A stretch of DNA of 40,000 nucleotides from Desulfobacterales bacterium (lineage in GTDB: Bacteria; Desulfobacterota; Desulfobacteria; Desulfobacterales; 4572-123), in NCBI GenBank assembly GCA_963667755.2, contig CAXXLK010000002.1, positions 928,118-968,117 of the forward strand, given 5' to 3'. Made by a program: the position numbers and the translations under genes. The notes beneath the pieces are model-generated. The model searched no databases and had not been told where the DNA came from. It saw nothing but the letters and a program-made list of their open reading frames with translations. Shown here piece by piece: positions 3,959-24,499 of the stretch. Within the stretch, counting starts at the first letter, position 1. Each line of letters begins with the position of its first letter.

Positions 3959-3982
3959 ATCCTCCTCCTTTGAATGCGTTAT

Positions 3983-5653: not shown

Positions 5654-5788
5654 GGGTAATTCTCAAAAAGATAAATCCGATCGACTAATAGCCGCGTACT
5701 TTTTTCAGGTATGCCTTGAGATCTCTGTCTATATCCCTATAAAGCATCATATGGGTTGCCAATTCCAAACAGCGAGGCATCAGCCAGT

Positions 5789-7240: not shown

Positions 7241-8844
7241 GCTCGGTTTCCGGTGTCAGGGTTTTTGTTTATTTCCAAGGAATCCGGCATATTCCCCGGA
7301 TTCCATAATTCCTGAGGATCAAGCTGCCGCTTCAGGCAGCGGATAAGTTTCAAACGGTTGGGCAACGGCATGGATCGAAACAGGCCTTTCCTGATTTTGC
7401 CGGCCCCGTGTTCTGTAACGACACTGCCTCCCAGGGCATCGATCCGTCTGGCCCAGTTTTCAATAAGTCGTTGTCCCCGATCAAATTCCCGGTAATCCCG
7501 GGGCAGTATATTGACATGCAGGTGTCCATCGGCCGCATGGCCGAAAATGGCGGCCTTGAGTCCGGATGCCGCTAAATCGGTTTGATACAGGGCTATCAGT
7601 TCAGACAGGGAGGTGCCTGTAAGGCGCATGTCCGTCCCGAGTTTGGTTATTCGGGAATCGGTCTGTCTTGCCATGTCGATGAGTCGATTGACCGCTTCCG
7701 GAGCGCCACGGCGGAACAGTCGCAGCCGCTCGGTTTCCATCTTACCGCAAGCGGCCCAGGTTGCGGCGGGATCGCAGCCGGATTCGGCGGCCGTTTCCAT
7801 CAGCCATTCACACAAAGGGTCGATTTCTTCAGCGCTGTTGCCGTGGATTTCCATATACACGGCAGTGGTAACGCTGTGCTGCCAATCCGGCAGGTCTTTC
7901 AAACGGGTGTTTACCTGCTTGAATTCCCGGATACTCTCAAGTGTGGTGTGATCCATTAACTCAATGGCCACGATGCGGGTGGCGGATTGGGCTTTCGACC
8001 GTTGATTGACGGATTCAACAAACGTTACGGCCCCGGACTGATCGTTGAAAAAAAAGACGATGCCCCACAGCTCGCTGGGAAGTGGCTTCAGGGCTAACGT
8101 CAGCTCGGTGATAACGCCAAGCATGCCCTGACTTCCCAGATACAGATCTAATAGATCCACAGTCGAACCGGGATCAAGGTCTGTCGGATCCAGAGGCAGT
8201 GTGCCGTTCCCCGGCAACGGGCACAGGCCGTTTGAAACAACATACTCACCCCTTGCAATCGAATGGCCGTGTCCTTTGCCATCAACAACCCGTATGCTTT
8301 TTATATGGTCACCGGCCGGTCCGTAATGGTGTGCGCAGATGCCCCTGCTGTTGCTGGCGGCAATGCCGCCGACAGATGCCGACGATTCGGATGGATCGGG
8401 AGGCCAGAACAGCCGGCCCGCCTCCTTAAAGGCCCTAAACGCGGTGAGTGCCTGTATGTCCCAGTCCGCCGTATCAAACCGGCGGTTTTCAAGCCGGCAA
8501 TCAAGTTCCGAAAGAAGGATTCCCGGCTCAACCCGTATGGAAACGTTGCCGTCCTGATCCTGTTCCAGGCCCGTTACCCGGGCCATTTTAGACAGATTCA
8601 GGATATGGCCCCCGGCAGGTACGGCGCCACCCGTGATCCCGGTTCGGCTGCCCTGGACAGTGATCGGGATTTGCCGCTCGAACAGGGCGCTGACAATCTC
8701 CCGGACCTGGGCTTCGCTCCGGGGAAAGGAGATGCTTTCAGCGTTGCCGGAGGTTCTGGACTCATCTGTCAAATACTCATTGTAAAGGGCCTCCAACGGT
8801 AGGATTAACTTGTCAGATTGGTCTGTCGGCATTGTCTCTTTCAT
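7237..8844 (-). CDS. FAD-binding PCMH-type oxidase/dehydrogenase (GlcD-like)
   Basis: 535-aa ORF with VQGSRTGITGGAVP...ILNLSKM...VEPGILLSEL and SVGGIAASNSRG motifs of FAD-linked oxidases. Its stop overlaps the FGGY start as ATGA (7237-7240). Confidence 0.8.
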   Translation of the reverse strand: MKETMPTDQSDKLILPLEALYNEYLTDESRTSGNAESISFPRSEAQVREIVSALFERQIPITVQGSRTGITGGAVPAGGHILNLSKMARVTGLEQDQDGNVSIRVEPGILLSELDCRLENRRFDTADWDIQALTAFRAFKEAGRLFWPPDPSESSASVGGIAASNSRGICAHHYGPAGDHIKSIRVVDGKGHGHSIARGEYVVSNGLCPLPGNGTLPLDPTDLDPGSTVDLLDLYLGSQGMLGVITELTLALKPLPSELWGIVFFFNDQSGAVTFVESVNQRSKAQSATRIVAIELMDHTTLESIREFKQVNTRLKDLPDWQHSVTTAVYMEIHGNSAEEIDPLCEWLMETAAESGCDPAATWAACGKMETERLRLFRRGAPEAVNRLIDMARQTDSRITKLGTDMRLTGTSLSELIALYQTDLAASGLKAAIFGHAADGHLHVNILPRDYREFDRGQRLIENWARRIDALGGSVVTEHGAGKIRKGLFRSMPLPNRLKLIRCLKRQLDPQELWNPGNMPDSLEINKNPDTGNRA

Positions 8845-9848
8845 CCATCCGTTCCGGATCCAGGGTGGGTGGGAAGGGTCTTGTCGGTTTTTTCCGTCAG
8901 GATGACCTTTTCCAGTTCCATGAGGATCGGCAGCATCTCCCCGACAAGGCCGACATGGGCAATCTGAAAGATCGGGGCTTTGGGGTCTGTATTGATGGCC
9001 ACGATAAAATCACTGGCTCTGATTCCGGCAGTGAAAACAGCGCTGCCGGAAACACCGGCTATAATACAGAGCCTTGGTGACAGGATCAAGCCGGAAGCAC
9101 CGATCAGGCGGTTCATGTCGGTCCAGGCGTTCATCACCACCGGACGGCTGGCGCCCAACCCAGCTCCGATACGGGCGGCAATCCCTTTTATGCGATCCAC
9201 GGTTGCTTTATCGCTTGCCCCCTGACCCACGACAATCACCAGATCCGCATCTGCCAGACCGGTATTGGATTGGTCCGGAATGGTCACGGTTGCCTTCACC
9301 CAATCGCATTGCGCCTCGTTCAGTGTGATGATTTCCGTGTTGTGCCCTTGCAGCGGGACCATTTGCATCGGCCGGCACGGTTGTTTTGCCATTGCCAGGC
9401 AATAGGGGGGCTGGGTCAGTATAAATGTTGCCTTTAAATTGTTTCCATACACCGGTTTTGTGACCTTGACCGTGTCACCGGCCGGACAATAGGATAGGGT
9501 CTGAAGACAGGCGTTTCCGTTGAGCCGATGGGCCAGACGCGTGGCCAGTTCCTGGCCCAGTCCGCCACTGGGAAACAGGATCAGATCCATGGGAAGACGG
9601 TCTGTTAATTGTAACAGTAATTGCAGATACGATTCGGGTAAAGGGGCATCATGCTTGACGGCCACCAGCTTGACGGCTGACAGTGAACAGTCTAACCCGG
9701 GAAGAGATGCGGGCGGTGCCCCCTTGTAAAAGAGCCACAGGGCCACACTGTGAAAACGGGGGGCACTGTCCTTGAGGCGTGCATTGATATCACCGGTCTG
9801 CTGCTGTATGGAGGCACTGTCCAGGAACATCACAATGGCGGCTTTCAT
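8841..9848 (-). CDS. etfA: Electron transfer flavoprotein alpha subunit (FixB/EtfA-like)
   Basis: 335-aa ORF. The C-terminal FAD domain reads GASRPVV...IGASGLILSPRLCIIAGVSGSAVFTAGIRASDFIVAINTDPKAPIF. ATGA overlaps at both ends. Confidence 0.85.
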   Translation of the reverse strand: MKAAIVMFLDSASIQQQTGDINARLKDSAPRFHSVALWLFYKGAPPASLPGLDCSLSAVKLVAVKHDAPLPESYLQLLLQLTDRLPMDLILFPSGGLGQELATRLAHRLNGNACLQTLSYCPAGDTVKVTKPVYGNNLKATFILTQPPYCLAMAKQPCRPMQMVPLQGHNTEIITLNEAQCDWVKATVTIPDQSNTGLADADLVIVVGQGASDKATVDRIKGIAARIGAGLGASRPVVMNAWTDMNRLIGASGLILSPRLCIIAGVSGSAVFTAGIRASDFIVAINTDPKAPIFQIAHVGLVGEMLPILMELEKVILTEKTDKTLPTHPGSGTDG

Positions 9849-10669
9849 CGGTTCAACCTGTTTTTAAGGTAGTGATCATAGAGGTGCCGGACCATCTGAT
9901 GGGGGTTCTGGCCGTCGATAAAAACACAGGCCTGTTTTGTCTTGGGGCGCTCGAGATCCACAAGGGTTTTTCCTTTTGGGCGTATGCTGTTGTCGGCGAC
10001 GGTCAGGTCCCTGCCTGGCACGATGGTTACCTGCCTTTTTTTCGCAGCCAGTTTCTGTTTCAGTGTGGGAAGGCGCAGACAGGGTGCGTCCAGGGACTGG
10101 CCGATGGTCAGCACCAGCGGCAGCCTGACGGTCTGCACCAGAATCGCGCCGTCAGTCCGGCTCTCTACTGTCAACCGGTCCGGTTCGTCTGTCCTGATCA
10201 CCCGGGTCACTTCGCGAATACAGGGCCACCCAAGCCGTTCTGCAATCAACAGCCCGGTCTGCCAGTTGTCGCCATCCCCGCCCTGGATACCTGAAAAAAC
10301 AAGCTCGTGGCCGTTTCGCCGGATATATTCGGCTATCAGAAAGGAGATACCGGATGGATTGAACCTCAGGTCCAGGTCCGCGCTGCACTGGATTCTTACG
10401 GCATGGTCATACCCGATGGCCATCAGGTGCCTGAGGAACAGGTCTCCCTGCGGGTCATCCACGGTCAGGGCGGTAAGGTCTGCCGTGTCCGGCAGGTGTC
10501 CTGATGGGTGTGAGAGGGTGAGCGCCATTTCCAATGCACTTTCGTCAAAGCAGTTGAATATCCGCCTGACAAAACCGGTATCGACACAATGACGCTCATC
10601 CCAGGTCCAGTCCTTTTCGGACAACCTTGCGTAATCGGCTATGATCTTGAAACAAACGATGATTTTCAT
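9845..10669 (-). CDS. etfB: Electron transfer flavoprotein beta subunit (FixA/YdiQ-like)
   Basis: 274-aa ORF. It starts MKIIVCFKII..., contains FDESALEMAL, and pairs directly with etfA. ATGA overlaps at both ends. Confidence 0.8.
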   Translation of the reverse strand: MKIIVCFKIIADYARLSEKDWTWDERHCVDTGFVRRIFNCFDESALEMALTLSHPSGHLPDTADLTALTVDDPQGDLFLRHLMAIGYDHAVRIQCSADLDLRFNPSGISFLIAEYIRRNGHELVFSGIQGGDGDNWQTGLLIAERLGWPCIREVTRVIRTDEPDRLTVESRTDGAILVQTVRLPLVLTIGQSLDAPCLRLPTLKQKLAAKKRQVTIVPGRDLTVADNSIRPKGKTLVDLERPKTKQACVFIDGQNPHQMVRHLYDHYLKNRLNR

Positions 10670-12123
10670 TTGTCCATGGGATAGATGGTGCCTGCGTTCA
10701 TGATGCCGTTGGGATCAAATTGATCCTTTAACCCTTTCAAAATATAATAGGCTGATCCGTGCTCAATTTTAGTCCAGGGGGTCCGGTATTTGCCAATGCC
10801 ATGGTGGTGCACCATCGAGCCCCCGACCTTCAGGGTTTCCTCCACAATCAACGCATTTAACGGAATGTGGTACTTGGTGATCTCTTCCTCCGGTTTGCAG
10901 TCTTTGACATCGTAGTCATAGACAAAGTACAGATTGGTACCGGTCTGGTAGCTGTGGGAAGAATGTCCGCCCAGCATGGTCAGATCGTCCGCATGGGGGA
11001 AATCCGACCGGATCCGTTGGATGGCGTTTTCATAGATGGTGTTGATCGTATCCCAGTTGCCCGAGACTTCCGTGGTGAACCCGATGTGATGGTTTTTGCG
11101 GATGAGTTCACGTTCCTCGGTAATTTTATCCGGTCCCCAGCACAGATGGTTGAACCAGTTCTCGACAATTCGACTGTCAATGCGCCGGCATTCCGTGTAG
11201 TTGTCGACAATCTCTTCGATTCCCCGGGCCGTGGCCTCGGCCAGGTGTTTATTGCCCTCTGCCAGGAACATCAGAACGCACTGGTCGGGCGCAAACTGAT
11301 CGAAACTGTGCTGGGTGCCGTCTTCCGCATCGTAAAGGCGCGCCATCGAAGGGCGATACCCATGGACCATGACTTCCCGCAGGATCTCAAACCCTTTTTC
11401 CATGGAATCCAGCCGCCAGGCCAGGAACTGGTTGTTTTTCGGGAAATATTTGAAAATTTTAACGGTGACTTCGGTAATAAAGCACAGTGCCCCTTCATTG
11501 CCGATGATCACGTGGCGGATATCCGGGCCGCATGAACGGCGGGGAACGTTTTTAATCCGGGTGATTTCACCGTTGGGGAACACGGCTTCCAGTCCGACGA
11601 CCATATCTTCGATGGCGCCGTAGAGGGTGGAAAACTGGCCGATGCTGCGGGTGGCCACCAGGCCGCCCATATGGGCCAACGGTTTTGACTGGGGAGAATG
11701 GCCGGTGGTATACCCCTGCTCCCGGAGCCGGTCTTCCAGATCACCTAACACCACACCGCACTGGGTTGTTGCCAGCATATTGGTGGGATCGATCTTGATG
11801 ATCTGATTCATCTGTGACCCGTCAAGCACCACGGAATTTTCAACGATGGTTTCCAGCCCCCCCTCCGTGGCGGTGCCCCCGGTTCGGGCCACGGAATTGA
11901 TTTGATTCTGGTTCAGGAAGGTCAATACATCTGCGACCTGCTTCGCGTCTGCCAGCTTGACCACGGCCGCAGGGATCGGGGTGGTATAAACACCGAATAT
12001 TGTTTCGTATTTTTTATACCGATCATGGCTGTTTTCCTGTAGCACCCTGGCATCGGTGATCACGCGCTGCTCACCGACAATGGTTTTGAGCTGATCGACA
12101 ATCGCTTCACGGGTCAATGTCAT
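10666..12123 (-). CDS. FAD-linked oxidase (GlcD / alkyl-DHAP-synthase-like)
   Basis: 485-aa ORF with VARTGGTATEGGLE, DPTNMLATTQCGVVLGDLE and GPDIRHVIIGNEGALCFITEVTVKI, the pattern typical of the PCMH FAD-binding domain. Confidence 0.8.
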   Translation of the reverse strand: MTLTREAIVDQLKTIVGEQRVITDARVLQENSHDRYKKYETIFGVYTTPIPAAVVKLADAKQVADVLTFLNQNQINSVARTGGTATEGGLETIVENSVVLDGSQMNQIIKIDPTNMLATTQCGVVLGDLEDRLREQGYTTGHSPQSKPLAHMGGLVATRSIGQFSTLYGAIEDMVVGLEAVFPNGEITRIKNVPRRSCGPDIRHVIIGNEGALCFITEVTVKIFKYFPKNNQFLAWRLDSMEKGFEILREVMVHGYRPSMARLYDAEDGTQHSFDQFAPDQCVLMFLAEGNKHLAEATARGIEEIVDNYTECRRIDSRIVENWFNHLCWGPDKITEERELIRKNHHIGFTTEVSGNWDTINTIYENAIQRIRSDFPHADDLTMLGGHSSHSYQTGTNLYFVYDYDVKDCKPEEEITKYHIPLNALIVEETLKVGGSMVHHHGIGKYRTPWTKIEHGSAYYILKGLKDQFDPNGIMNAGTIYPMDK

Positions 12124-12182
12124 GATAAATCCTTTTTTACGTATGATTGGTAAATAAACCTGTTTTTATCCGTTCATTCTTT

Positions 12183-12959
12183 TTATCGTACCATATAGCC
12201 TCCGTCAACAATGAGCACCTGGCCATTCAAATAGTCGGAGGCCCGGCTGGCCAGAAACACGACCGTTCCCATCAGGTCCTGGCGGTTACCCCAGCGATTG
12301 GCGGGGATACGATCGAGGACCCGTTGATTGGTTACCGGATTGCTCCTGGTCCGGGTTGTCATGTCGGTGGCATAATAGCCCGGTGCAATACCGTTTACCT
12401 GGATATCGTATTGTGCCAGTTCATCGCCGTAGGACTTGGTCAGCCCTGCGAGGCCATGTTTTGTCGCCGCATAGGCCGGACCGTCCCGTCCTCCCAGGTA
12501 AGAATAGAGGCTGCAGATATTGATTATCTTACCGCTTTTCTGGGGGATCATTATCTTGGCCGCTTCATGACTCATCTCAAATGCGGCTGTAAGGTTGACG
12601 GCCACCATGGGATCCCAGTCAGCTCGGCCAAATTCCAAGACAGGCTTCAACCGGCTGATACCGGCATTGTTGACCAGAATGTCCAGGCTGCCGAATTTTT
12701 TCAGGCAGGTTTCAATGATCTGCTTCGGTGCGCCGTTCCCCGTGATGTCAATTTCCATCAATTCAAGGGCCACACCCTGCTTTTCAATTAATTGCCGGGC
12801 TTCGCCATTATCCGTGACATAACTGGGAATGAAAAGATTGGCGCCGGCTTTTGCCAGGGCAGCTGAAAACGCAAGCCCCAATCCTCTGTTGCCGCCCGTC
12901 ACAATGGCTGTTTTCCCTTTCAGGGAAAAAAAATTTAATGAAAAATCATCTATTTTCAA
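12183..12959 (-). CDS. Short-chain dehydrogenase/reductase, KduD-like
   Basis: 258-aa ORF with TGGNRGLG (TGxxxGxG), NNAG and YAATKHGLAGLT (YxxxK). The overall pattern resembles 2-deoxy-D-gluconate 3-dehydrogenase. Confidence 0.85.
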   Translation of the reverse strand: MKIDDFSLNFFSLKGKTAIVTGGNRGLGLAFSAALAKAGANLFIPSYVTDNGEARQLIEKQGVALELMEIDITGNGAPKQIIETCLKKFGSLDILVNNAGISRLKPVLEFGRADWDPMVAVNLTAAFEMSHEAAKIMIPQKSGKIINICSLYSYLGGRDGPAYAATKHGLAGLTKSYGDELAQYDIQVNGIAPGYYATDMTTRTRSNPVTNQRVLDRIPANRWGNRQDLMGTVVFLASRASDYLNGQVLIVDGGYMVR

Positions 12960-13047
12960 AGGGTTAAACTCCTCTTAAATGGTTTTTAATGGTAATAGAC
13001 ACTATCATGTCCTTTGTTTATATAACGAATCCTTTTCCCAGATAGTG

Positions 13048-14523
13048 TTACGAAGATAAGTCAGATCGATTATCTGCCGCGCACCTTTGTAGGTATGCCT
13101 TGAGATCTCTGTCCAGGTCCCTGGAAATCATCATGTCCGGTCGATTTGCAAGGATCTCTTTATAGCGTCGGTTGGCGCGGGTCATGATGCTCTCTTTACC
13201 GTTGGACGCCCAGTTGTCATAGGACTGCCAGCATGAGACCGTGGGAAGCCACTGGCTTCTGAACCGTGCAAAGGTATCTTCATGGGGGAGATAACTGCCG
13301 CCGGGTCCCACTTCTTTTATGACATCCAGGGACAATTCACCATCGGAGGTGTCGACCCCTTCGCAGATACGGATCACCCGGCTCATCATCTCCTCGTCAA
13401 TGATGAATTTTTCATAGGAAATGGTCAAAATGGCATCCAGTACACCAAATACCTGCTCGATCATGTGGCCGCCGGACATCATTCCCATCATCATGTTCTG
13501 CATGGTGTCATACCCGGCCTGGATATCCACCTCCTTGGCGTCAGTCATACCGGCCATAATGCGGGTGGGCACTTTGTAAAAATCAATGGCCATCTGGAGA
13601 CAGGTCGAGTTGATCAAAAATTGTTCCGGGGGGGCATATATGCAAATGGCGGTTCTCATATCGGCAACCGTGGATGCCGGGCAATATACCATGGGCCCGC
13701 CGGGATTGATCAATTGCACCAGGGCATTTCCGGCCAGTACCTCAGCATTTTGCTGAACAATACTGCCAAAAAGGCTCATGGGCGCTGTGATGCCTGCCAG
13801 GGCACATGGCAGAATATAAACCGGCTGATTTCTGCCGGCATATGCAATGATGGTGTCAAGGGTTTCCGTGGCATATTTCAATGGGCTCAAGGGGTTGGTG
13901 CTGACCCCGATACAATAGTTTGTTTCAAGAAATTTTTCACCGAACACCATTTCCACCATATCAAGGGATTCTTTTGCTTTTTGGGCAACGGTACAGCTTC
14001 CGATGATGGGTTTGTCTGTATGTTTGATGGTTTCGTAAATCATGTACAAGGCCCGCTCGGTGTCCGCTACATCATCCGGCGCCACGGGGGTGGCGCCGGT
14101 GAGTTTTACAATGTCGCTGGCCTGGGAGAGTTTCTGAAAATTAGCGTAGTCCTCAAGAAGTCCCCGGCGTTTTCCGCTGTCCATATCTTCACAGAACACG
14201 CATCCCACATTGGGGTGGGGGGCAAAACCATCGCCAATGGTCACCGATTGTGCGTCATTTCTTGCCACGTGGCGATATGTCGTTGGGGCCTGTTCCATGG
14301 CGGCTTCCGCCATGGGGCCTGGAATGAATACGGTTTTCCCGTCCACCCTGGCCCCATGGCGTTTAAAGATTTCAAGGGCCTTTTCATGTTCGAAGATGAT
14401 GCCGCACTGTTCCAAAATTTCGATACTGGCGTCGTGTATCCTGGGCAGGTCGGTATTTTTCACTATTTTGACACGAGGCAGTTTTCTTGTTGCGGAATTA
14501 CAGAAGGTATTGGGTGTAATCAT
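13048..14523 (-). CDS. MttB-superfamily methyltransferase, non-pyrrolysine type (candidate quaternary-amine:corrinoid methyltransferase)
   Basis: Uninterrupted 491-aa ORF, colinear with the two TAG-containing mttB genes in this window. VPTRIMAGMTDAKEVDIQAGYD aligns with LPSFAAGG[TAG]GDSKVVDYQSGHE, placing a Met codon where the paralogs have TAG. An AGGAG RBS lies 8 nt upstream. Confidence 0.85.
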   Translation of the reverse strand: MITPNTFCNSATRKLPRVKIVKNTDLPRIHDASIEILEQCGIIFEHEKALEIFKRHGARVDGKTVFIPGPMAEAAMEQAPTTYRHVARNDAQSVTIGDGFAPHPNVGCVFCEDMDSGKRRGLLEDYANFQKLSQASDIVKLTGATPVAPDDVADTERALYMIYETIKHTDKPIIGSCTVAQKAKESLDMVEMVFGEKFLETNYCIGVSTNPLSPLKYATETLDTIIAYAGRNQPVYILPCALAGITAPMSLFGSIVQQNAEVLAGNALVQLINPGGPMVYCPASTVADMRTAICIYAPPEQFLINSTCLQMAIDFYKVPTRIMAGMTDAKEVDIQAGYDTMQNMMMGMMSGGHMIEQVFGVLDAILTISYEKFIIDEEMMSRVIRICEGVDTSDGELSLDVIKEVGPGGSYLPHEDTFARFRSQWLPTVSCWQSYDNWASNGKESIMTRANRRYKEILANRPDMMISRDLDRDLKAYLQRCAADNRSDLSS

Positions 14524-14538
14524 ACGTCATCTCCTAAG

Positions 14539-15057
14539 TTACCCTCTTGCCAGGGCCAGCAGGTTAACACCCAGCTGGTGGCGTTTTTCAGCCGGACAGC
14601 CGTTTTCGATGCGCTGTTTCATCTGCAGCCCGTTGAGCTTGCGCATCTGCTTGTCACCCTCGACAAAGACGATGGCCTCGGGTTCGCATTCCTTGACGCA
14701 GGCCGGGTCTCCGCCGCAGTAATCGCATTTGAAGGCGATATGGTCGCTGCCCATCTCGATCATGCCGTAAGTACAGGCGTCCACGCAGTCGCCGCAGCCG
14801 TTGCATTTTTCGGCATTGACCAGCACAACCCCGTCGGCATCTTTGGTGATGGCCCCCTCCGGGCAGGCCTTCATGCAGTCGGGCTTGGGGCAGTGAAAGC
14901 AGATGCTGGGTACCGAATATCCCCTGAGGGGGAAATTGTTGATATGAATTCTGGCCTTGGTGGGCTGGAACAGGCCTTGTTTAACCGCGGAGCAGACATA
15001 GACGCAACGGTTGCATCCGGTGCAGAGTTCAGGATTGGCAAATATATGTTTTTCCAT
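14539..15057 (-). CDS. 4Fe-4S dicluster (poly)ferredoxin
   Basis: 172-aa ORF with several Cys clusters (CTGCNRCVYVC, CFHCPKPDCMKACP, CNGCGDCVDAC, CDYCGGDPACVKEC). It starts 23 nt after the AOR stop. Confidence 0.85.
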   Translation of the reverse strand: MEKHIFANPELCTGCNRCVYVCSAVKQGLFQPTKARIHINNFPLRGYSVPSICFHCPKPDCMKACPEGAITKDADGVVLVNAEKCNGCGDCVDACTYGMIEMGSDHIAFKCDYCGGDPACVKECEPEAIVFVEGDKQMRKLNGLQMKQRIENGCPAEKRHQLGVNLLALARG

Positions 15058-15080
15058 GAGTTGTATTCCTCCTGGGGCTT

Positions 15081-16844
15081 TTAGAATTGGTCAAGACCTA
15101 GCTGGGCCAGCTTTTCCGGGGTGGGAACGCCATTTTTATCCCATCCGCGCTTTTCGTAGTACAAGGCCAGGCAGTGGTCGAAATCTTCCGGCGCAAACAC
15201 CCGTCCGGTGTGTTCGCCCTTTTGGAGCTGCTGTGTCATCTGCTTGACCGGCAGATAATCGTCTGCACGGGTGAGACCGGCCCTGAGGTTGAACAGGCGC
15301 AGAATATTCCAGATCTTCTCCCCGGCATGTTCCAGCTGCCCGGCCGTGACCGTTTCCCCCGTGGCCACGGAGAGAATGTCGGCAATGATGGGCGCTGTGA
15401 TCGAACCCCAGAAGTCGCAAAAGCCCATGGACCATTTGATGGTCGCAAAGTTTTGACCGTCAACCACGTCCCGGGCCATGGCCGCCAGGTCAAAGGGGGT
15501 TTCACTGAACATGGGAAAGGCGCGCATGTGGCAGCCCCCGCGTTCGCTGGTGGCATACGCCAGTCCCATGCCGTAATTGGAGCGGGGGTCATAGGCCGGG
15601 AATTCAAGGCCCTTGGCTTCGGAGGTTAAATCCTGGCTGTCATACTTGGCAGCCAGCTTTTTGGCCCCCAGGGCCAGGTCTTTGCCGCGCCGGGTGGAAA
15701 GGGTGGCGATTTCAGTGACCGCCTTGAGGTATTCGACGGGTTCGCCGAATTTCAGATTGAAGTCGTGGCGGCCTTTTTCGGTCATGTCCATGGCCAGGCC
15801 GATGATGTTGCCGCAACTGATGGTATCCAGGCCCAGATCATCGCACAACCGGTTGAAGCGGATGACCTGCTCCAGGTCGTTGATTTCGCAGTTGCTGCCC
15901 GCCAGGCAGAGGGTCTCGTATTCCGGTCCTTCCATCTCGGCACCATTGATGTGGGTGAATTTGCCGCAGGCCAGGGGGCAGGTGGAACAGGCCCGGTTTC
16001 CCAGCTTGGCGGCCTTGATGGCCTCGGTGTTGATGCCTTCCTTGGCGTCGTTAACGCCATAGCTGAAATTGCGGGTGGGATGGCCCCCCATATCGCTGAT
16101 GACATCCACCAGCATCGCAGTACCGTCGGTTTTGGCCCACAGGTTGGCCTCGGTCAACAGGTCGGTTTTTTTGTACGCGTTGACCTTTTCGATGAAGGCG
16201 GGCACGTCCGCCACTTTGATACCGCCGGTACCGCGCACCACAATGGCTTTTAACTTTTTGCTGCCCAGGATGGCGCCACCGCCGCTGCGGCCCATCTGGC
16301 GGTAGGCCTCGGTGCCGAGGCAGGCATGGGATACCATATTCTCACCGGCCGGCCCGATGGCCAGCACTTTGGCTTCGGGGGTTCCCACAGCCGCCTGCAG
16401 TCGTTCTTCGGTTTCGAAAAGGCCCTTACCGGCCAGGAATTGGGCACTCTCCAGACTCACCTGGTCATCCATGATCTTAAGATAGGTCGGCTTTTTGGCC
16501 GCGCCTTTGATGATGATGCCGTCATAGCCGGCAAATTTGAGTTCAGGTCCGAAGGCGCCGCCGGTATTGGAAGAAAAAATAGTGCCGCTATGGGGCGACT
16601 TGGACACCAGATTGAACCGGGCGGTCATGGGGGCTGACGTGCCGCCCAGGGGCCCGGTCATGATGATCACCGGATTTTCAGGGGAAAGGGGGTCGACTTT
16701 GGGGTCAACCAGATCCCAGTAGTAACGGACCGCCAGCCCCCAGCAGCCCCAGTATTCCTTGATCCAATCTTTCCGCAGCGGTTCTTCTGAAATTTGCCCG
16801 GTGCTGAGATCAACAACGAGTAATTTACCTGCATAAAGATTCAT
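15081..16844 (-). CDS. aor: Tungsten-type aldehyde:ferredoxin oxidoreductase
   Basis: 587-aa ORF. The N-terminus reads GKLLVVDLSTGQ...GGTSAPMTARFNLVSKSP...GYDGIIIKG, and the C-terminus reads YYEKRGWDKNGVPTPEKLAQLGL, both typical of the AOR family. A GGAGG RBS is present. Confidence 0.9.
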   Translation of the reverse strand: MNLYAGKLLVVDLSTGQISEEPLRKDWIKEYWGCWGLAVRYYWDLVDPKVDPLSPENPVIIMTGPLGGTSAPMTARFNLVSKSPHSGTIFSSNTGGAFGPELKFAGYDGIIIKGAAKKPTYLKIMDDQVSLESAQFLAGKGLFETEERLQAAVGTPEAKVLAIGPAGENMVSHACLGTEAYRQMGRSGGGAILGSKKLKAIVVRGTGGIKVADVPAFIEKVNAYKKTDLLTEANLWAKTDGTAMLVDVISDMGGHPTRNFSYGVNDAKEGINTEAIKAAKLGNRACSTCPLACGKFTHINGAEMEGPEYETLCLAGSNCEINDLEQVIRFNRLCDDLGLDTISCGNIIGLAMDMTEKGRHDFNLKFGEPVEYLKAVTEIATLSTRRGKDLALGAKKLAAKYDSQDLTSEAKGLEFPAYDPRSNYGMGLAYATSERGGCHMRAFPMFSETPFDLAAMARDVVDGQNFATIKWSMGFCDFWGSITAPIIADILSVATGETVTAGQLEHAGEKIWNILRLFNLRAGLTRADDYLPVKQMTQQLQKGEHTGRVFAPEDFDHCLALYYEKRGWDKNGVPTPEKLAQLGLDQF

Positions 16845-17036
16845 GTCCCCTCCAATTATCCATGTTTGTTAATGAAAACTATCCACAGGCCCCTGGGGGC
16901 CGGTAAAACCAAACGTTCAGGCAGACGGTTGTTTAGACTGAAGGTTAAATGCATTCTACCTGTTTAATGGCTATCTTCAGCCTTCAACTTTTTACCTGTA
17001 TATACGTAGCCATCTGAAAGAACGTTTACGAGAGCA

Positions 17037-17981
17037 TCATCCCTGGCATGGATGAATACCGTCAGATTGTTCGGCGACCAGTGTTTCCGGAAATCCCGGT
17101 GCCCGCAAAGGCTGCCGGCAGGCATCTTCCAGCATTTTAACCACTTTTGGCGACCACGCATCACCGCCGAATAAATTGCGGGCCCTTTCAAAAATCTGGC
17201 GCGTCATACCGCCCAGTTCCAGGGGAACATTGAGTTTTTCCGCAATTCTACCTGCAAATCGCAGATCCTTGCAGGCCAGGTCCATGGTGAAATTTACGTT
17301 ATAGCTGCCGCTGAGAATAAGTTGAGATTCGGTTTCATGGACAAAGCTGTTACCCGAACTTGCCCGAATCGCTTTGTATGCAGCCCCCAGGTCCACCCCC
17401 TGTCTGGCTGCCAGCATCATGCCTTCCCCGGCGGCCACCAGATGAATAAACGCCAGCATGTTGGTGACCACTTTGACAACGCTGGCATTGCCGACGACAC
17501 CCAGGTGAATCACCTCCTTGCCCATTACTTTGAGGATGGGTTTAAAACGCTCATACACAGCGATATCGCCGCCGACGAGCACGGTGATCTCACCGGTATG
17601 GGCCAGGTGCACGCCGCCTGTCACCGGGCACTCCAGCACGTCAAACCCTTTTTCCCGGGCAATCAGCGCCAGGCGCTGGATATCTTCAAAATCGGTGGTG
17701 CTCATTTCGATCCAGCAGCTGCCCTGCATCAGGTGGTCGAAAACACCCCCCGCCTGCTCCACCACGGCCCGGGAAGCCTCGGGTGAAGGCAACGCCGTTA
17801 TCACCACCGTTGCTGCATGGCATACCCCGGCGATATCATCAGACCATCTGGCGCCGGCTTCGATCAGACCGACACCGACTTCAGGGTGAAGGTCGCTGAC
17901 GGTCACATCGTGGCCGGCCCTGACCAGGTTCAAGGCCAGGGGATACCCCAGATTGCCTAATCCGATAAATCCGATGTTCAT
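17037..17981 (-). CDS. NAD(P)-dependent beta-hydroxyacid dehydrogenase (3-hydroxyisobutyrate dehydrogenase family)
   Basis: I moved the start to the ATG at 17981 (MNIGFIGLGNLGYPLALNL, a Rossmann GxGxxG) because GGAG lies 6 nt upstream. The track start at 18044 adds 21 unsupported residues. Confidence 0.85.
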   Translation of the reverse strand: MNIGFIGLGNLGYPLALNLVRAGHDVTVSDLHPEVGVGLIEAGARWSDDIAGVCHAATVVITALPSPEASRAVVEQAGGVFDHLMQGSCWIEMSTTDFEDIQRLALIAREKGFDVLECPVTGGVHLAHTGEITVLVGGDIAVYERFKPILKVMGKEVIHLGVVGNASVVKVVTNMLAFIHLVAAGEGMMLAARQGVDLGAAYKAIRASSGNSFVHETESQLILSGSYNVNFTMDLACKDLRFAGRIAEKLNVPLELGGMTRQIFERARNLFGGDAWSPKVVKMLEDACRQPLRAPGFPETLVAEQSDGIHPCQG

Positions 17982-18348
17982 ATTTTCTCCCTTTTTATTA
18001 TTGTTCCAGTGGTCATAATCTAATCCCAACCCCACTAAAAGCATGAATACTACTGTCTTTAAGGGGATTCAAGAAAAAATCGATCAAATTTTTATAAACA
18101 TCCGTATTTCTCAAATCATATTTTTTTAAATATCTGTACGGGATAAAACAATCACCGTCAGGCCACCGGACTTGATACCCACAGATACTTCAGGGCTCGT
18201 TAAAGGTTGACGTTTCCGGGTAACCATGCTAATCCGTTTGGACTATAATTGGGAAAATTGCTGTATATCCATATGGTAAAACTTGTACATGCCTTGATTT
18301 TGAACGAAAACCGTTTTTTCTGGACACACGCAAGTTAAGGGGACAGAT

Positions 18349-18797: not shown

Positions 18798-18822
18798 CTC
18801 GTAAAACGTCGGATTTTTACGA
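18798..18822. terminator. Hairpin between the convergent usp and ABC ATPase genes (possible bidirectional terminator)
   Basis: CTCGTAAAA-cgtcgga-TTTTACGAG forms a perfect 9-bp stem. The stem is A/U-rich and there is no clear trailing U-run on either strand. Confidence 0.3.
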
Positions 18823-18834
18823 GATCGTTACAGA

Positions 18835-20499
18835 TTAAACCACTGACGCCTCTTTGATCTCCTTGAGTCCAATCCCTTTTTCTTTTCTCATTTTCAATAC
18901 ATTATCAAGCCAATCCGGATCCATTTCAGGAACCGAAGAGAGCAACAGTTCCGTGTATTCATGGTATGGCGGATCAAGGACTTTCTTTTTGATGCCCTGT
19001 TCGATAATTCTGCCCTGCAGCATGACCACGATCTCATCGGATATGGCCTTTACCGTTGCCAGGTCGTGGGTAATAAAGAGATAGGATACCTGTAATTCGT
19101 TTTGCAGATCCTGTAGCAATTTCAGAACCCCTTCGGCCACCAACTGGTCCAGGGCCGACGTTACTTCATCACAGATAATCAGATCCGGTTTTGCCGCCAG
19201 GGCCCGGGCGATACAGATCCGCTGCTTTTCACCCCCTGACATTTCACCGGGGAAGCGATCGATATATTTTTTAGGCTTCAGTTCAATCATTTCCAAAAGC
19301 TCTCGGATTCTATCTTCCTTTTCCTTGCCATGAAGATTAAAATAAAATGTCAGGGGACGTCCGATGACATCCCTCACTTTTTGCCGGGGGTTAAGGGCCG
19401 TGTCCGGCATTTGATAAATCATCTGCATGATCCTCAGTGTTTCCCGGGCCCGTGCCTTTAAGGCTGGCGGCAACACCTTGCCGCCGTATGTAATTTCTCC
19501 CTCCAGGGGCGGCAGCAGACCGGTGATAACCCGCGCCAGGGTGCTTTTGCCGCTGCCCGATTCACCCACCAAGGCAACGGTCCTGGCGCGTCTGACGACA
19601 AGGTTGATGTCTTCAAGCACCTTTTCACTGGCCTTGCCCGTGTAGCTGGCCGATATATTGTCAACTTTCAGAACAATATCGTGTTCAGTGGCGGAAAGAT
19701 CCCTCTCTTCCCTGAGAGATCGGACTGACAGCAGGGCCCGGGTATAGTCCTCTTTGGGATTGGCCATCAATTCCCTGGCATTATTTTCTTCGATGAGATC
19801 ACCGTATTTGAGGACCATGATGCGATCAGCCAATTGAGCCACTACGGCCAGGTCGTGGGTGATGTAAATCGCTGCCGTTTTAAATTCCCGGGTTATTTTC
19901 TTGATGGCGGCAAGGACCTCGATCTGCGTTGTCACGTCCAATGCGGTTGTGGGCTCATCAAAAATGATGAGATCCGGTGTGCAGGCCATGGCCATGGCCA
20001 CCATGGCCCGCTGGAGCTGCCCTCCCGAAACCTGATGGGGGTAGCGGTAACCGATCCCTTCAGGATCCGGCAACAGAAGGCGCCGATATATGTCCACGGC
20101 TTTTTCTTCCGCTTTTTGGAAATTCATCAGGCCGTGCTGAATCGGCGCTTCCGCATATTGTTTGATGAGCCGGTGCGCCGGATTAAACGAGGCGGCTGCG
20201 CTTTGTGCGACATAGGAGATACGAACGCCTCTGATTTTTTTTAACTCATTTCTCGGTGCGCCCACCAGTTCCATGCCGTCAAAGACAATCGATCCGGAGG
20301 AGATACGACAGCCCCCCCGGGTGTAGGCCATGGAGGCTAGCCCGAAGGTGGATTTCCCCGCCCCGGATTCTCCAATCAGACCAAGAACTTCACCTCTGTC
20401 CAGCGTGAGGTCAAGGCCCTTTATGATCGGCATCCATTTCTCTTCATCCGAACTGTAACCGTCTATCACTATTTTTTTCATTTCAAGCAGATGGGTCAT
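18835..20499 (-). CDS. ABC transporter ATP-binding protein with duplicated ATPase domains (DppD/DppF-type fusion)
   Basis: 554-aa ORF with two Walker A motifs (GESGAGKST, GESGSGKST), two signatures (VSGGQLQR, MSGGEKQR) and two Walker B motifs (IIFDEPTTALD, LICDEVTSALD). Confidence 0.9.
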   Translation of the reverse strand: MTHLLEMKKIVIDGYSSDEEKWMPIIKGLDLTLDRGEVLGLIGESGAGKSTFGLASMAYTRGGCRISSGSIVFDGMELVGAPRNELKKIRGVRISYVAQSAAASFNPAHRLIKQYAEAPIQHGLMNFQKAEEKAVDIYRRLLLPDPEGIGYRYPHQVSGGQLQRAMVAMAMACTPDLIIFDEPTTALDVTTQIEVLAAIKKITREFKTAAIYITHDLAVVAQLADRIMVLKYGDLIEENNARELMANPKEDYTRALLSVRSLREERDLSATEHDIVLKVDNISASYTGKASEKVLEDINLVVRRARTVALVGESGSGKSTLARVITGLLPPLEGEITYGGKVLPPALKARARETLRIMQMIYQMPDTALNPRQKVRDVIGRPLTFYFNLHGKEKEDRIRELLEMIELKPKKYIDRFPGEMSGGEKQRICIARALAAKPDLIICDEVTSALDQLVAEGVLKLLQDLQNELQVSYLFITHDLATVKAISDEIVVMLQGRIIEQGIKKKVLDPPYHEYTELLLSSVPEMDPDWLDNVLKMRKEKGIGLKEIKEASVV

Positions 20500-20528
20500 C
20501 GTTAAGTTACCTCACAGAAGCATTGCTG

Positions 20529-21353
20529 TTAATCTTTCAATCCGCTGGCGATCTTTAAAAACCAGTCGACAATCAGATTGACACCCACCGTCAAAAATGC
20601 AATGGCGCCGGCGGGCCATAACGGTGTCAGAATGCCGAAGGTGATGGCCCCGGCATTCTCCCGAACCATGCCGCCCCAATCCGCTGTGGGCGGCTGGATG
20701 CCAAGCCCCAGAAAACTGAGGGCCGCGATGAATAAAAATACGAAACAGAACCGCAGGCCGAATTCCGCAACCAGCGGCGGCATGGCATTGGGCAGAATTT
20801 CTTTGCGCATGACCCAGATGATGCCCTCTCCGCGAAGCCTCGCCGCTTCAACGAACTCCATGACATTAATATCCATGGCAACGGCCCTTGAGAGACGAAA
20901 CACCCGGGTGGAATCAAGCACCGCGATGACCAATATTAATGCGGGCACGGATGTCCCCACCACGGACAGGGCCATCAAGGCAAAAATAAGCGTTGGAAAC
21001 GCCATCAGGATGTCGACAATACGGCTGATAAACAATTCGGGCCAGCCTCCGATGACCGCCGCGAAAAAGCCTATCAGCGCACCGAAAAAAAACGAAAGAA
21101 GTGTGGTGACAAATGCGATGACAATGGTGTTCCGGGCACCGTACAACAACCGTGTGAACATATCACGCCCCAGGTGGTCCGTACCGAGCAGGTGGTCCGA
21201 ACTCGAAGGCAGCCAGACGTCCCCCACCATTTCCGTTTCAGAATAGGGGGCGATCACCGGAACAAAAATAGCTGCAAAGATATTGATCAGTATCATTGCA
21301 AGACCAATGCGGGCGCTCAGGGGTGATTGTCTCAGCAATTTTAAAAAGCCCAT
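20529..21353 (-). CDS. ABC transporter permease (DppC/OppC-like)
   Basis: 274-aa hydrophobic ORF with LGTDHLGRDMFTRLLYGARN and the EAARLRGEG EAA-loop region. Confidence 0.85.
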   Translation of the reverse strand: MGFLKLLRQSPLSARIGLAMILINIFAAIFVPVIAPYSETEMVGDVWLPSSSDHLLGTDHLGRDMFTRLLYGARNTIVIAFVTTLLSFFFGALIGFFAAVIGGWPELFISRIVDILMAFPTLIFALMALSVVGTSVPALILVIAVLDSTRVFRLSRAVAMDINVMEFVEAARLRGEGIIWVMRKEILPNAMPPLVAEFGLRFCFVFLFIAALSFLGLGIQPPTADWGGMVRENAGAITFGILTPLWPAGAIAFLTVGVNLIVDWFLKIASGLKD

Positions 21354-21366
21354 CGAAGCCTTCTCC

Positions 21367-22329: not shown

Positions 22330-22342
22330 TTTTTCACCGTTT

Positions 22343-24256: not shown

Positions 24257-24499
24257 GGGGCCTTCATCCGGATTTAGTATGGGTCTAAACAGTTATTTGC
24301 TTGCTGCTGCGCAAAACTCAGCATACACCACTTTCATGTAAAAAAAAGGATAGGGCCTTGACCATCGCTTGGGCCACATTCGCAAAAAGGCTGACGCCTG
24401 AACGCCTACGAAATGAAGGTCTTCGGTCGAAACGATGATCAAAGCCCGGAATCAACAACGTATCAGCACCTTTTGATTTGTCATGAAGAACGCCGAGGT

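Follow-up and report, generated by a model that had tools for sequence, protein, structure and literature searches.

The locus lies within a window of 40,000 nt, by which term we mean the whole stretch of DNA that was analysed, from a host summarized as a marine sulfate reducer. Between positions 13048 and 16844 three genes follow one another on the minus strand, separated by 23 nt (between the AOR and the Fd gene) and 15 nt (between Fd and mttB), as the preliminary description had claimed:

15081..16844, minus strand: AOR, catalytic subunit of an AOR-family aldehyde oxidoreductase, 587 aa (AFOR_N 249 bits, AFOR_C 356 bits)
14539..15057, minus strand: Fd, four-[4Fe-4S] protein, 172 aa, 16 Cys, four CxxCxxCxxxC-type motifs (Fer4_11 and other Fer4 families)
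13048..14523, minus strand: MttBnp, non-Pyl methyltransferase of the MttB superfamily, 491 aa (PF06253 MTTB, 400 bits, E 1e-119)

Each of the three genes has a ribosome-binding site (AGGAGG before the Fd start, AGGAG before that of mttB), and the two gaps leave no space for a terminator. The AOR, the four-cluster Fe-S protein, and the non-Pyl mttB, as judged from the sequence, probably share one transcript; moreover, the 15-nt spacing between Fd and mttB is retained, together with the ribosome-binding site, in 95%-identical relatives, which retention indicates a real co-expression and counts against a mere juxtaposition.

The catalytic subunit matched 9mqx_D (466 bits), 1aor (403 bits), and 8c0z_A (363 bits) in the PDB and belongs to an orthologue group (56-94% identity) that is widespread across the Desulfobacterota. 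The Fe-S protein, for its part, had as its top PDB matches 9mqx_E, 8c0z_C (the Fe-S subunit of the A. aromaticum AOR), and 6x6u_B (the WOR5 Fe-S subunit), the two products thereby matching paired chains of the same complexes (9mqx D/E, 8c0z A/C, 6x6u A/B), and in relatives its gene invariably follows that of the AOR by ~23 nt. What had been described as the ferredoxin of the AOR is indeed an Fe-S protein with four clusters, but the product of 14539-15057 is most likely an AorA/WOR5-beta-like small electron-transfer subunit of the oxidoreductase rather than a free ferredoxin. In the explanation that we favour as a whole, though by a modest degree, the pair would form a single tungsten-type aldehyde oxidoreductase of the AorAB/WOR5 kind, with AOR as its large and Fd as its small subunit. 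The AorAB(C) of Aromatoleum aromaticum, the WOR5/ASOR of Pyrococcus furiosus, and 9mqx likewise combine an AOR subunit with a four-cluster polyferredoxin of ~18 kDa (PMC12096430); unlike AorAB(C), the present locus has the large-subunit gene preceding the small, and no gene for an AorC-like FAD subunit is adjacent in the window.

MttBnp scored 308 bits against the TMA-methyltransferase equivalog TIGR02369, whose cut-off is 525 bits, and its best PDB match was the MtgB of D. hafniense (2qne/9yce, 323 bits). The sense codon reported earlier at the Pyl column was confirmed as Met326 by two alignments that agree: the TAG-containing MttBs of the window read AAGG*GDSK and VAGG*VDSK, whereas MttBnp reads IMAGMTDAK and MtgB GGGLNDSK. 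MtgB resembles MttBnp in belonging to the PF06253 TIM-barrel superfamily, in having a sense codon at that column, and in a conserved Arg, the carboxylate-binding Arg312, whose aligned counterpart is Arg321. The two proteins are, however, only 37% identical, and the Y/R/H/F pocket of MtgB becomes V/R/Q/I in the MttBnp subfamily (Y97 to V, H348 to Q, F356 to I), whose signature is V106/R321/M326/Q357/I365; furthermore, the MtgB gene is accompanied by those of MtgC and MtgA, while the MttBnp gene stands behind an AOR (PMC13080624). With three of four betaine-binding residues differing, MttBnp does not cluster tightly with MtgB, the sole characterised member compared, which result agrees with the earlier interpretation. 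In MtgB the substitutions Y97A and F356L raise the Km several hundred-fold (PMC13080624), and the replacement of three of the four betaine-binding residues renders glycine betaine insecure as the substrate of MttBnp.

Among the best 120 matches of MttBnp (all at least 49% identical), every orthologue at 70-95% identity is from the Desulfobacterales, and no E. limosum protein was seen among the named entries, which are a minority. The dN/dS of MttBnp against a 95%-identical relative was 0.14, and values of 0.10-0.14 across AOR, Fd, and mttB denote purifying selection. The same explanation, whose probability we place slightly above even, takes MttBnp to be a working corrinoid-dependent methyltransferase, part of a Desulfobacterales-wide orthologue group.

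Both a corrinoid protein and a pterin-binding methyltransferase are absent from the operon, as had been claimed, and the ORFs scanned across the 40,000-nt window included no Pterin_bind protein. Two corrinoid genes occur farther off:

35143..35772, minus strand: corrinoid protein (B12-binding_2 and B12-binding, GDLHDIG motif)
34344..34946: second corrinoid gene, stop-interrupted

The former, in which the preliminary description had correctly recorded a DxHxxG motif, is a candidate methyl acceptor for MttBnp. That the missing corrinoid partner was an anomaly, as then supposed, does not hold: in E. limosum the non-Pyl MtpB, MtcB, and MtyB are, like MttBnp, encoded apart from the corrinoid protein and the THF methyltransferase, all three sharing MtqC/MtqA/RamQ, with MtqC/MtqA encoded in other clusters, and usually have beside them just the genes of a transporter and a regulator (PMC8604678); in Ruegeria MtgB, MtgC, and MtgD are mutually unlinked (PMC12478193), and the absence is therefore normal for the MttB family. 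We propose that MttBnp would most likely remove one methyl from a substrate held by Arg321, either glycine betaine or a carboxylated onium compound closely resembling it, that the methyl would pass to a Co(I) corrinoid protein encoded elsewhere (that at 35143-35772 being the candidate), and that a methylcorrinoid:tetrahydrofolate methyltransferase, whose gene would lie beyond the window, would deliver it to C1 oxidation.

The oxidoreductase might, alternatively, act as an electron supply, the low-potential electrons of AOR-Fd holding the corrinoid partner at Co(I) and so replacing or feeding a RamA-type activase. The aldehyde/acid couple has a very low potential, and AOR genes are recurrent near those of corrinoid methyltransferases, both of which points speak for such a role, as does the requirement of corrinoid proteins for reductive reactivation by RamA/RamQ (PMC8604678). 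Nevertheless, no activase gene stands beside the operon, the link to an AOR is not conserved among the MttBnp orthologues, and the AOR clade associates with aminotransferases, with nothing specific to corrinoid chemistry; we thus consider this role highly improbable.

Regarding the conservation of the arrangement, a sample of 18 loci with MttBnp orthologues (L008-L025; 73-85% identity; at least six Desulfobacterales genera) contained neither AOR nor Fd in any instance, and the triple is confined to ~95%-identical relatives. The adjacency that had been expected to recur thus largely fails to do so, and what survives of the earlier interpretation is the probable co-transcription of a non-Pyl MttB with the AOR and its Fe-S protein, but neither the conserved adjacency nor the missing corrinoid protein as an oddity. 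The typical partners at the 18 loci are a glycine-betaine-type BCCT (top model: glycine betaine uptake transporter), which adjoins the orthologue in 6; EtfAB, with EtfA directly upstream in 6; a DMGDH-like flavoprotein (7 loci); a Pyl-MttB orthologue (9 loci); and a sigma-54 activator. At L011 a corrinoid gene, whose product is 54% identical to that of 35143-35772, adjoins both the orthologue and the BCCT, and 51%-identical homologues in Acididesulfobacillus belong to the canonical set of BCCT, OpuAC-type ABC transporter, corrinoid protein, Pterin_bind methyltransferase, and MttB. According to a passage of PMC6716910 that cites Heijthuijsen and Hansen (1989), strains of Desulfobacterium remove one methyl group from glycine betaine, yielding dimethylglycine. 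On the explanation toward which the balance leans, the ancestral home of MttBnp would be a betaine-catabolic cluster (BCCT, DMGDH-like, EtfAB, Pyl-MttB), and the window's Pyl-MttB1 and MttBnp retain the ancestral order and strand.

Around the trio the window contains the following:

5638..13069: segment of 7.43 kb without counterpart in ~95% relatives (KduD-like SDR, two GlcD-like FAD oxidases flanking EtfB/EtfA, FGGY kinase)
17037..18044, minus strand: HIBADH-family beta-hydroxyacid dehydrogenase (NAD_binding_2 and NAD_binding_11; every NCBIfam hit under its cut-off), 192 nt upstream of AOR
18835..26089, minus strand: Opp/Dpp-type ABC transporter (SBP_bac_5 24500-26089, permeases 20529-22437, fused ATPase 18835-20499) and CoA-transferase-GNAT fusion (minus strand, 22343-24256), from Pfam and synteny
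26519..26836, minus strand: remains of a second AOR gene, divergent and cut down to the last ~100 residues of the C-terminus, immediately 3' of the Pyl-MttB
27231..28703, minus strand: PylMttB1, Pyl-type MttB with in-frame TAG, orthologue of the betaine-cluster Pyl-MttB (79-84% identity), separated by 22 nt from the omega-aminotransferase upstream of it (28726-30120)
30241..31815: CoA-acylating (methyl)malonate-semialdehyde dehydrogenase (MMSDH 536 bits, cut-off 448.5)

Two Pyl-MttB, a Pyl-MtbB, and a fragment of a GABA-aminotransferase are also present. A block of ~12.7 kb (ABC transporter, CoA-transferase, HIBADH-like, AOR-Fd) sits between the Pyl-MttB and MttBnp, in this lineage only, at the position of EtfBA-BCCT in relatives, which placement would have created the AOR-Fd-MttB transcription unit. 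By blastn the ~95% relatives are colinear with the window from 24422 to 13070 and then from 5637 to 2532; the 7.43-kb segment begins 22 nt before the mttB stop, and in the relatives L005 and L006 mttB and the next gene overlap by 4 nt. Besides this indel at the mttB stop, the signs of rearrangement comprise the AOR remnant (AFOR_C profile positions 256-345, 72 bits; tblastn identity up to 40% with other AOR clades), a transposase fragment, the stop-interrupted corrinoid gene, and a dS discontinuity. The AOR-Fd-MttB pairing would accordingly be, within the reading we narrowly prefer, a recent rearrangement restricted to this lineage.

The AOR-Fd pair is itself a discrete, mobile cassette (14539..16871, minus strand), the DNA similarity to other contigs extending from 27 nt upstream of the AOR start to the Fd stop codon (blastn: 91% with L027 over 16871-14539, 85% with L028 over 16878-14562). 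The gene 3' of it varies between MttBnp, a Pyl-MttB from a different subfamily, and a gene resembling those of restriction endonucleases, and differs even among relatives whose AORs are 85-93% identical. Of the 23 loci in the clade to which this AOR belongs, 13 have a class-III aminotransferase gene immediately upstream, that of L037 exceeding the putrescine-aminotransferase equivalog cut-off, and a PotD-like ABC transporter often accompanies it. The logic recalls the PatA-PatD putrescine route, amine to amino-aldehyde to amino acid, except that AOR and polyferredoxin take the place of the NAD-dependent aldehyde dehydrogenase and that the aminotransferase of the window is not adjacent.

We find it somewhat more probable than not, then, that rearrangement within an island of methylamine and omega-amine catabolism brought an amino-aldehyde oxidoreductase next to a betaine-type methyltransferase. 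The cassette, with its conserved partner, the putrescine-type class-III aminotransferase, would convert amine to amino-aldehyde and acid; and, because a block limited to this lineage would have made the AOR-Fd-MttB unit, its coupling to MttBnp would reflect a shared regulation within the island, not a dedicated enzyme partnership, with no direct substrate-product link.

Such a link would exist if a quaternary omega-amino compound (e.g., beta-alanine betaine or gamma-butyrobetaine) were stripped of its N-methyls stepwise, by MttBnp on the quaternary, Pyl-MttB on the tertiary, and Pyl-MtbB on the secondary amine, the primary amine then being transaminated to a semialdehyde that AOR-Fd (or an aldehyde dehydrogenase) would oxidize to the acid. 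All the parts are in the window (MttBnp, two Pyl-MttB, Pyl-MtbB, corrinoid proteins, aminotransferase, HIBADH-like, AOR-Fd); the omega-aminotransferase and the semialdehyde dehydrogenase share an operon with Pyl-MttB1; the AOR clade has aminotransferase-AOR-Fd as its conserved core; and aminotransferase, MtbB, AOR, and Fd are combined in one neighbourhood at L083 (MtbB, corrinoid, AOR, Fd, aminotransferase) and at L028/L029 (aminotransferase, Pyl-MtbB, PotD-like ABC, cupin, AOR, Fd, Pyl-MttB), where the Pyl-MttB directly follows an AOR-Fd 89% identical to that of the window. This sequence of steps is nonetheless unlikely, in that MttBnp orthologues elsewhere are paired with a DMGDH-like enzyme, not with aminotransferases or AOR, the gene arrangement differs in every lineage, and Pyl-MttB and Pyl-MtbB have known activity only on free trimethylamine and dimethylamine.

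The reverse order, wherein the dehydrogenase and AOR-Fd would turn an imported quaternary-amine alcohol or aldehyde into the carboxylate before MttBnp demethylates the betaine, would take a choline-like substrate through betaine aldehyde, with ABC uptake and oxidation substituting for betaine uptake by the BCCT. HIBADH enzymes use hydroxy acids rather than choline as substrates, and SBP_bac_5 proteins are not known to bind choline, both of which facts weigh against this route. The characterised non-Pyl MttB members, in its favour, all act on acidic quaternary amines via the conserved Arg, requiring the carboxylate that AOR-Fd would supply, and the MthB of E. limosum can use choline only once it has been phosphorylated (PMC12155760, PMC13080624); the block replacing EtfBA-BCCT, moreover, consists of transporter, dehydrogenase, and AOR-Fd. 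The HIBADH-like gene, however, carries a frameshift or is vestigial in close relatives, being split in L005 and only a remnant in L027, and the cassette usually accompanies a putrescine-type aminotransferase rather than a betaine gene.

A convergent cluster on high-GC contigs (L069, L070, L074, L075, L077, L091) also speaks for that oxidative route, in combining an MtgB-like gene, AOR, an MDR oxidoreductase, an SBP_bac_5 ABC transporter, and a divergent TetR with a BetI-type C-domain. This cluster recalls the BetI-BetA-BetB operon by analogy only, through weak domain matches (the C-domain at 29-34 bits, cut-off 27) in organisms unrelated to the window's host; the MDR protein standing for the alcohol dehydrogenase has no clear function, no homologues of BetA, BetB, or BetI occur in the window, and we regard the route as improbable. 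Juxtaposition of AOR with such genes nevertheless recurs: among 84 unrelated AOR loci, 13 have MttB, MtbB, or corrinoid genes next to the AOR, and such adjacency is seen in 8 of 13 contigs of a high-GC AOR clade, an independent recurrence that is unexpected under pure coincidence and that, with the unconserved MtgB pocket, leaves room for a real AOR-MttB pathway link. These pairings may point to an undescribed pathway; the MtgB-like gene of the high-GC cluster, for its part, retains R/H/F.

The three genes that the preliminary description had presented as a tight arrangement are given here together with the intact corrinoid-protein gene of the window:

15081-16844, reverse strand: aldehyde:ferredoxin oxidoreductase (AOR)-family gene, 587 aa; AFOR_N 249 bits, AFOR_C 356 bits
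14539-15057, reverse strand: four-cluster Fe-S protein (Fd), 172 aa; four Cys motifs for [4Fe-4S]
13048-14523, reverse strand: MttB-family protein, hereafter MttBnp for its non-pyrrolysine type, 491 aa; PF06253 400 bits
35143-35772: corrinoid protein, intact, with a DxHxxG motif

That arrangement was borne out: the intergenic gaps are 23 nt (AOR/Fd) and 15 nt (Fd/mttB), within which lengths a terminator cannot fit; the ribosome-binding sequences AGGAGG and AGGAG precede the Fd and mttB genes, respectively; and all three products match their families. The triple is real, and probably co-transcribed. Scans for sigma-54 and sigma-70 promoters and for terminators gave counts no higher than those of shuffled sequence.

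MttBnp matched PF06253 over its full length (E 1e-119), with residues 9-481 aligned to positions 22-495 of the 500-position profile; it carried no in-frame UAG and, at 308 bits, fell below the TIGR02369 cut-off of 525, and is thus not a pyrrolysine-type trimethylamine methyltransferase. Each of three other genes contains one in-frame TAG at the pyrrolysine (Pyl) position, which makes the source, one of the Desulfobacterales, a Pyl decoder:

27231-28703, reverse strand: mttB (product hereafter Pyl-MttB1)
35821-37314, reverse strand: mttB
32766-34157, forward strand: mtbB

The residues around the Pyl column are IMAGMTDAK in MttBnp, AAGG*GDSK and VAGG*VDSK in the two Pyl-MttBs of the window, and GGGLNDSK in the MtgB of D. 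hafniense, with the codon of Met326 being ATG in MttBnp and TAG at the matching column of both Pyl-MttBs. Met326 therefore occupies the Pyl column, in agreement with the sense (Met) codon that had been noted at that position.

MttBnp is 37% identical to MtgB, the sole characterized non-Pyl member in this comparison. The glycine betaine ligands of MtgB are Y97, R312, H348, and F356; the Arg is conserved in all members whose function is known, and the known substrates are all acidic quaternary amines (PMC13080624). MttBnp shares R312 as Arg321—a residue that does not vary among 33 orthologues or the 50-57% relatives—but has V106, Q357, and I365 in place of Y97, H348, and F356, so that the aromatic pair Y97/F356 and the H348 of the MtgB pocket are absent at the aligned columns. 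Throughout the subfamily the signature is V106/R321/Q357/I365, and the Pyl column holds M or I. From the conserved Arg and the acidic nature of the known substrates, we would expect that the substrate of MttBnp should also carry an acidic group; other residues could stand in for those missing from the pocket.

The orthologues at 70-95% identity were found in Desulfobacterales alone—one of them in a cultured strain, Desulfocicer vacuolatum DSM 3385—while the 50-57% tier comprises Desulfobacterota and Bacillota; and the dN/dS of mttB against the 95% relative (0.14) denotes purifying selection. MttBnp represents an uncharacterized subfamily, spread over marine sulfate reducers and some Bacillota. 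To our knowledge, few substrates are known for the very large non-Pyl MttB family, whose enzymes steer glycine betaine-like osmolytes toward demethylation versus trimethylamine, which latter compound feeds methane production in sediments. Dimethylsulfoniopropionate (DMSP), whose candidacy stems from older physiology papers that reportedly dealt with Desulfobacterium strains, was considered as a substrate of MttBnp and discarded, the literature searches having given no link of MttB-family enzymes to anaerobic DMSP demethylation.

The apparent lack of a corrinoid partner was a further claim that had been made, of which one part holds: the AOR-Fd-MttB unit encodes neither the corrinoid protein nor the methylcorrinoid:THF methyltransferase of an MtgBCA-type operon, and the ORFs scanned across the window gave no Pterin_bind match. 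That linkage does occur in a 51%-identical relative (P0105). The absence, however, is not anomalous, since unlinked partners are ordinary in the family: MtpB, MtcB, and MtyB of E. limosum use a common MtqC, MtqA, and RamQ from other clusters (PMC8604678), and the genes for MtgB, MtgC, and MtgD of Ruegeria are likewise unlinked (PMC12478193). Adjacent corrinoid and THF-methyltransferase genes are thus not obligatory for MttB-family enzymes (PMC8604678). The corrinoid protein at 35143-35772 is a candidate methyl acceptor of MttBnp, and a corrinoid gene 54% identical to it adjoins the MttBnp orthologue at one locus (L011). A second corrinoid gene (34344-34946, forward strand), located 3' of mtbB, has the motif GDVHDIG but is interrupted by an in-frame TAA (34788-34790), and is probably a pseudogene unless the TAA is a sequencing error.

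The neighborhoods of the MttBnp orthologues were scanned at 20 loci, with one genome per species and the neighbors identified by tblastn, along with gene calls and Pfam for four loci. The triple occurred only in the ~95%-identical lineage (L005 and L006/L007, the latter two being the same record). At the 18 loci outside that lineage—from Desulfocicer, Desulforhopalus, Desulfamplus, Desulfobacula, Desulfotignum, Desulfobacter, and unclassified Desulfobacterales—neither AOR nor Fd was found in flanks of up to 10 kb (0/18), which result largely refutes the specific AOR-Fd-MttB triple by the condition that the preliminary description had itself set. The common order at those loci was a DMGDH-like flavoprotein, Pyl-MttB, EtfB, EtfA, in some instances an FeS-CCG oxidoreductase, BCCT, MttB, and a sigma-54 activator; with BCCT being adjacent in six, EtfA directly upstream in six, Pyl-MttB present in nine, and the DMGDH-like gene in seven. 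The top NCBIfam model of the BCCT protein was the glycine betaine uptake transporter (558 bits, under the cut-off of 650), and in the 51% relative, from Acididesulfobacillus, BCCT, an OpuAC-type ABC transporter, a corrinoid protein, a pterin-binding methyltransferase, and MttB occur together. These gene contexts point to a betaine-type function for MttBnp.

How, then, did AOR-Fd come to lie beside this gene? Pyl-MttB1 is the orthologue (79-84%) of the betaine-cluster Pyl-MttB and is located upstream of MttBnp on the same strand, in the ancestral order; and the ~12.7 kb between the two stands where the relatives carry EtfBA-BCCT. That stretch contains an AOR remnant, an SBP_bac_5 gene, a CoA-transferase-GNAT fusion, permeases, an ATPase, Usp, a HIBADH-like gene, and AOR-Fd. 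The DNA homology of AOR-Fd to other loci (91% to L027, 85% to L028) begins 27-34 nt 5' of the AOR start, and ends exactly at the Fd stop codon in L027 and 23 nt short of that stop in L028; the gene after Fd is MttBnp in the window, another Pyl-MttB only 27% identical to MttBnp in L028/L029, and a restriction-endonuclease-like gene in L027. In view of these homology limits and the differing downstream genes, AOR-Fd therefore behaves as a cassette.

Further discontinuities surround the triple. The window and L007 are colinear from 24422 to 13070, whereupon the alignment resumes at 5637, with 7.43 kb missing from L007; the junction is located 22 nt before the mttB stop, thus altering the final residues of MttBnp, while in the ~95% relatives mttB and the following gene share 4 nt. 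The 7.43-kb stretch (5638-13069), which the ~95% relatives lack, encodes a KduD-like SDR (329 bits, cut-off 369), an EtfB/EtfA pair flanked by two GlcD-like FAD oxidases, and an FGGY kinase; and resembles a module for oxidizing sugar acids or hydroxy acids. The dS values against L007 were 0.15-0.17 for AOR, Fd, MttB, a 556-aa protein, and an acyl-CoA dehydrogenase, and about twofold lower, 0.07-0.09, for the CoA-transferase/permease/ATPase block (18811-24422, compared with 2532-16871), which discontinuity suggests recombination between lineages. A DDE transposase fragment (37920-38582, forward strand) adjoins a GABA-aminotransferase gene (38943-39947, reverse strand) that is 5'-truncated, lacking its first ~70 codons, both of which features point to rearrangement of the island by insertion sequences. 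These two features, the TAA-broken corrinoid gene, and the dS step mark the region as actively rearranging. The AOR remnant (26519-26836, reverse strand), between Pyl-MttB1 and SBP_bac_5, comprises the C-terminal ~100 aa of a second, divergent AOR (AFOR_C profile positions 256-345; at most 40% identity to other AOR clades).

We lean, with moderate confidence, toward reading the triple as peculiar to this lineage, in which a mobile AorAB-type cassette came to lie next to the Desulfobacterales betaine-cluster methyltransferase. The AOR-MttB pairing in the window is probably a by-product of rearrangement, and the specific anomaly that had been pointed out is largely explained.

With respect to the cassette itself, the AOR contains both AFOR_N and AFOR_C, and the cysteines of its [4Fe-4S] motif (C286, C289, C293, and C476) do not vary among 35 orthologues; the best solved relatives are 9mqx_D (466 bits), 1aor, which is the P. 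furiosus AOR (403 bits), and 8c0z_A. The best PDB matches of the 172-aa Fe-S protein are 9mqx_E, 8c0z_C, and 6x6u_B. As the two proteins match partner chains of the same AOR complexes, the initial assignment of an AOR with its ferredoxin is upheld for the genes and amended for the second product, which would probably be a small AOR subunit of the AorA/WOR5-beta type. AorAB of A. aromaticum and WOR5 of P. furiosus consist of a catalytic subunit plus a four-cluster polyferredoxin (PMC12096430); an adjoining ~18-kDa four-[4Fe-4S] subunit is likewise encoded in the window, and that adjacency is kept in relatives. An AorABC-type AOR has a third subunit, AorC, whereas no gene for an AorC-like FAD/NAD-binding subunit was found beside AOR-Fd in the window, L005-L007, or L027-L030.

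In a survey of 84 AOR loci, grouped by average-linkage clustering on identities, the clade of the window AOR comprised 23 loci (50-93% identity), in 13 of which a class-III aminotransferase is directly upstream of AOR, often with a PotD-like ABC transporter close by; and the aminotransferase of L037 exceeds the NCBIfam cut-off for putrescine aminotransferase (643 versus 612 bits). The ancestral role of the cassette is therefore most likely the ferredoxin-linked oxidation of a transamination-derived amino-aldehyde. Desulfobacterota metagenome contigs (L032, L033, L037-L047) carry a putrescine-type aminotransferase, AOR, the polyferredoxin subunit, and often the PotD-like transporter, a module suggesting that anaerobic polyamine breakdown involves a ferredoxin-linked step that oxidizes 4-aminobutanal.

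Nearby corrinoid-methyltransferase-type genes were nonetheless present at 13 of the 84 AOR loci, a proportion that, by our estimate, would be well above the expectation from the rarity of these families. In L028/L029, Pyl-MtbB is upstream of AOR and Pyl-MttB follows 21 nt after Fd; Pyl-MtbB is near AOR in L034, as is a corrinoid protein in L050; and the order in L083 is MtbB, corrinoid, AOR, Fd, aminotransferase. In a separate high-GC AOR clade (41-45% identity), an MttB-family gene is located beside AOR in 8/13 contigs; the non-Pyl MttB there retains three of the MtgB pocket residues (R, H, and F), and the divergent gene between MttB and AOR encodes a TetR regulator whose C-terminal domain is of the BetI type (29-34 bits, cut-off 27). 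Among the titles, abstracts, and term counts consulted in the literature, none linked AOR to MttB-family enzymes, although both terms occur in one paper (PMC11291895). In the window, furthermore, an operon-like stretch (28726-31815, reverse strand) encodes an omega-aminotransferase and a CoA-acylating (methyl)malonate-semialdehyde dehydrogenase (536 bits, cut-off 448.5) 22 nt before Pyl-MttB1, which linkage raises the question of whether Pyl-MttB1 acts solely on free trimethylamine. The counterparts of Pyl-MttB1 in other genera have a DMGDH-like flavoprotein as their partner.

From the recurrent adjacency and this aminotransferase operon, two pathway-level links are therefore possible. AOR may act downstream, after demethylation and transamination, with which version the position of Pyl-MttB1 22 nt after the aminotransferase and dehydrogenase genes is consistent; or AOR may act upstream, making an acidic betaine from an onium aldehyde before demethylation, as the oxidative counterpart of the choline-kinase step of E. 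limosum, in which organism choline must be phosphorylated before MthB can use it (PMC12155760). We consider direct AOR-MttB coupling in either version, taken jointly, to be possible though rather unlikely. A broader proposition, which we regard as speculative and improbable, would have AOR-family enzymes as recurrent functional partners of corrinoid-dependent N-demethylation, with a role varying by lineage: either the conversion of an onium aldehyde to an acidic betaine for a non-Pyl MttB, or semialdehyde oxidation after stepwise demethylation and transamination. In the latter case, the Pyl-MttB/MtbB paralogues would act on tertiary and secondary omega-amino acids and not just on free trimethylamine and dimethylamine; and the operon in the window would, under the broader proposition, be one of several independent assemblies of the pathway. 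Were the wider association functional, a ferredoxin-linked route would join aldehyde oxidation to anaerobic quaternary-amine catabolism; this association and the divergent MttBnp pocket are the points of lasting interest.

The high-GC loci include metagenome contigs of 64-74% GC (L069, L070, L074, L075, L077, L091; also L068 and L078) with one common cluster. Its MttB gene is either of the MtgB-like non-Pyl kind or of the Pyl type, a corrinoid-protein gene is present in some instances, and the set is completed by the divergent TetR, an AOR of the other clade that has no Fe-S subunit next to it, an MDR oxidoreductase, and an SBP_bac_5 ABC transporter; no description of this cluster was found in the literature searched. 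The assignment of its "Zn-ADH" as a choline dehydrogenase was weakened, the nearest NCBIfam models being quinone-oxidoreductase and enoyl-reductase MDRs, far under their cut-offs; and among annotated plasmids, no match to this AOR clade exceeded 41% identity. The AOR remnant of the window may be the scar of an earlier MttB-AOR-ABC arrangement such as that in these contigs.

The 556-aa protein (3983-5653, reverse strand) had no Pfam, NCBIfam, or PDB sequence match and belongs to a family that is very large in Desulfobacterota (>2,700 homologues). We considered and rejected this protein as a missing partner, such as an activase, in that its AlphaFold model shows a GalT/HIT-like nucleotidyltransferase fold and its gene elsewhere occurs among acyl-CoA genes. 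This model (pLDDT 84, pTM 0.86) returned galactose-1-phosphate uridylyltransferase, ADP-glucose phosphorylase, and HIT folds in Foldseek (E 1e-9 to 1e-7). The protein has a conserved SHQQxHQQ stretch, and in close relatives the start of its gene overlaps the mttB stop by 4 nt.
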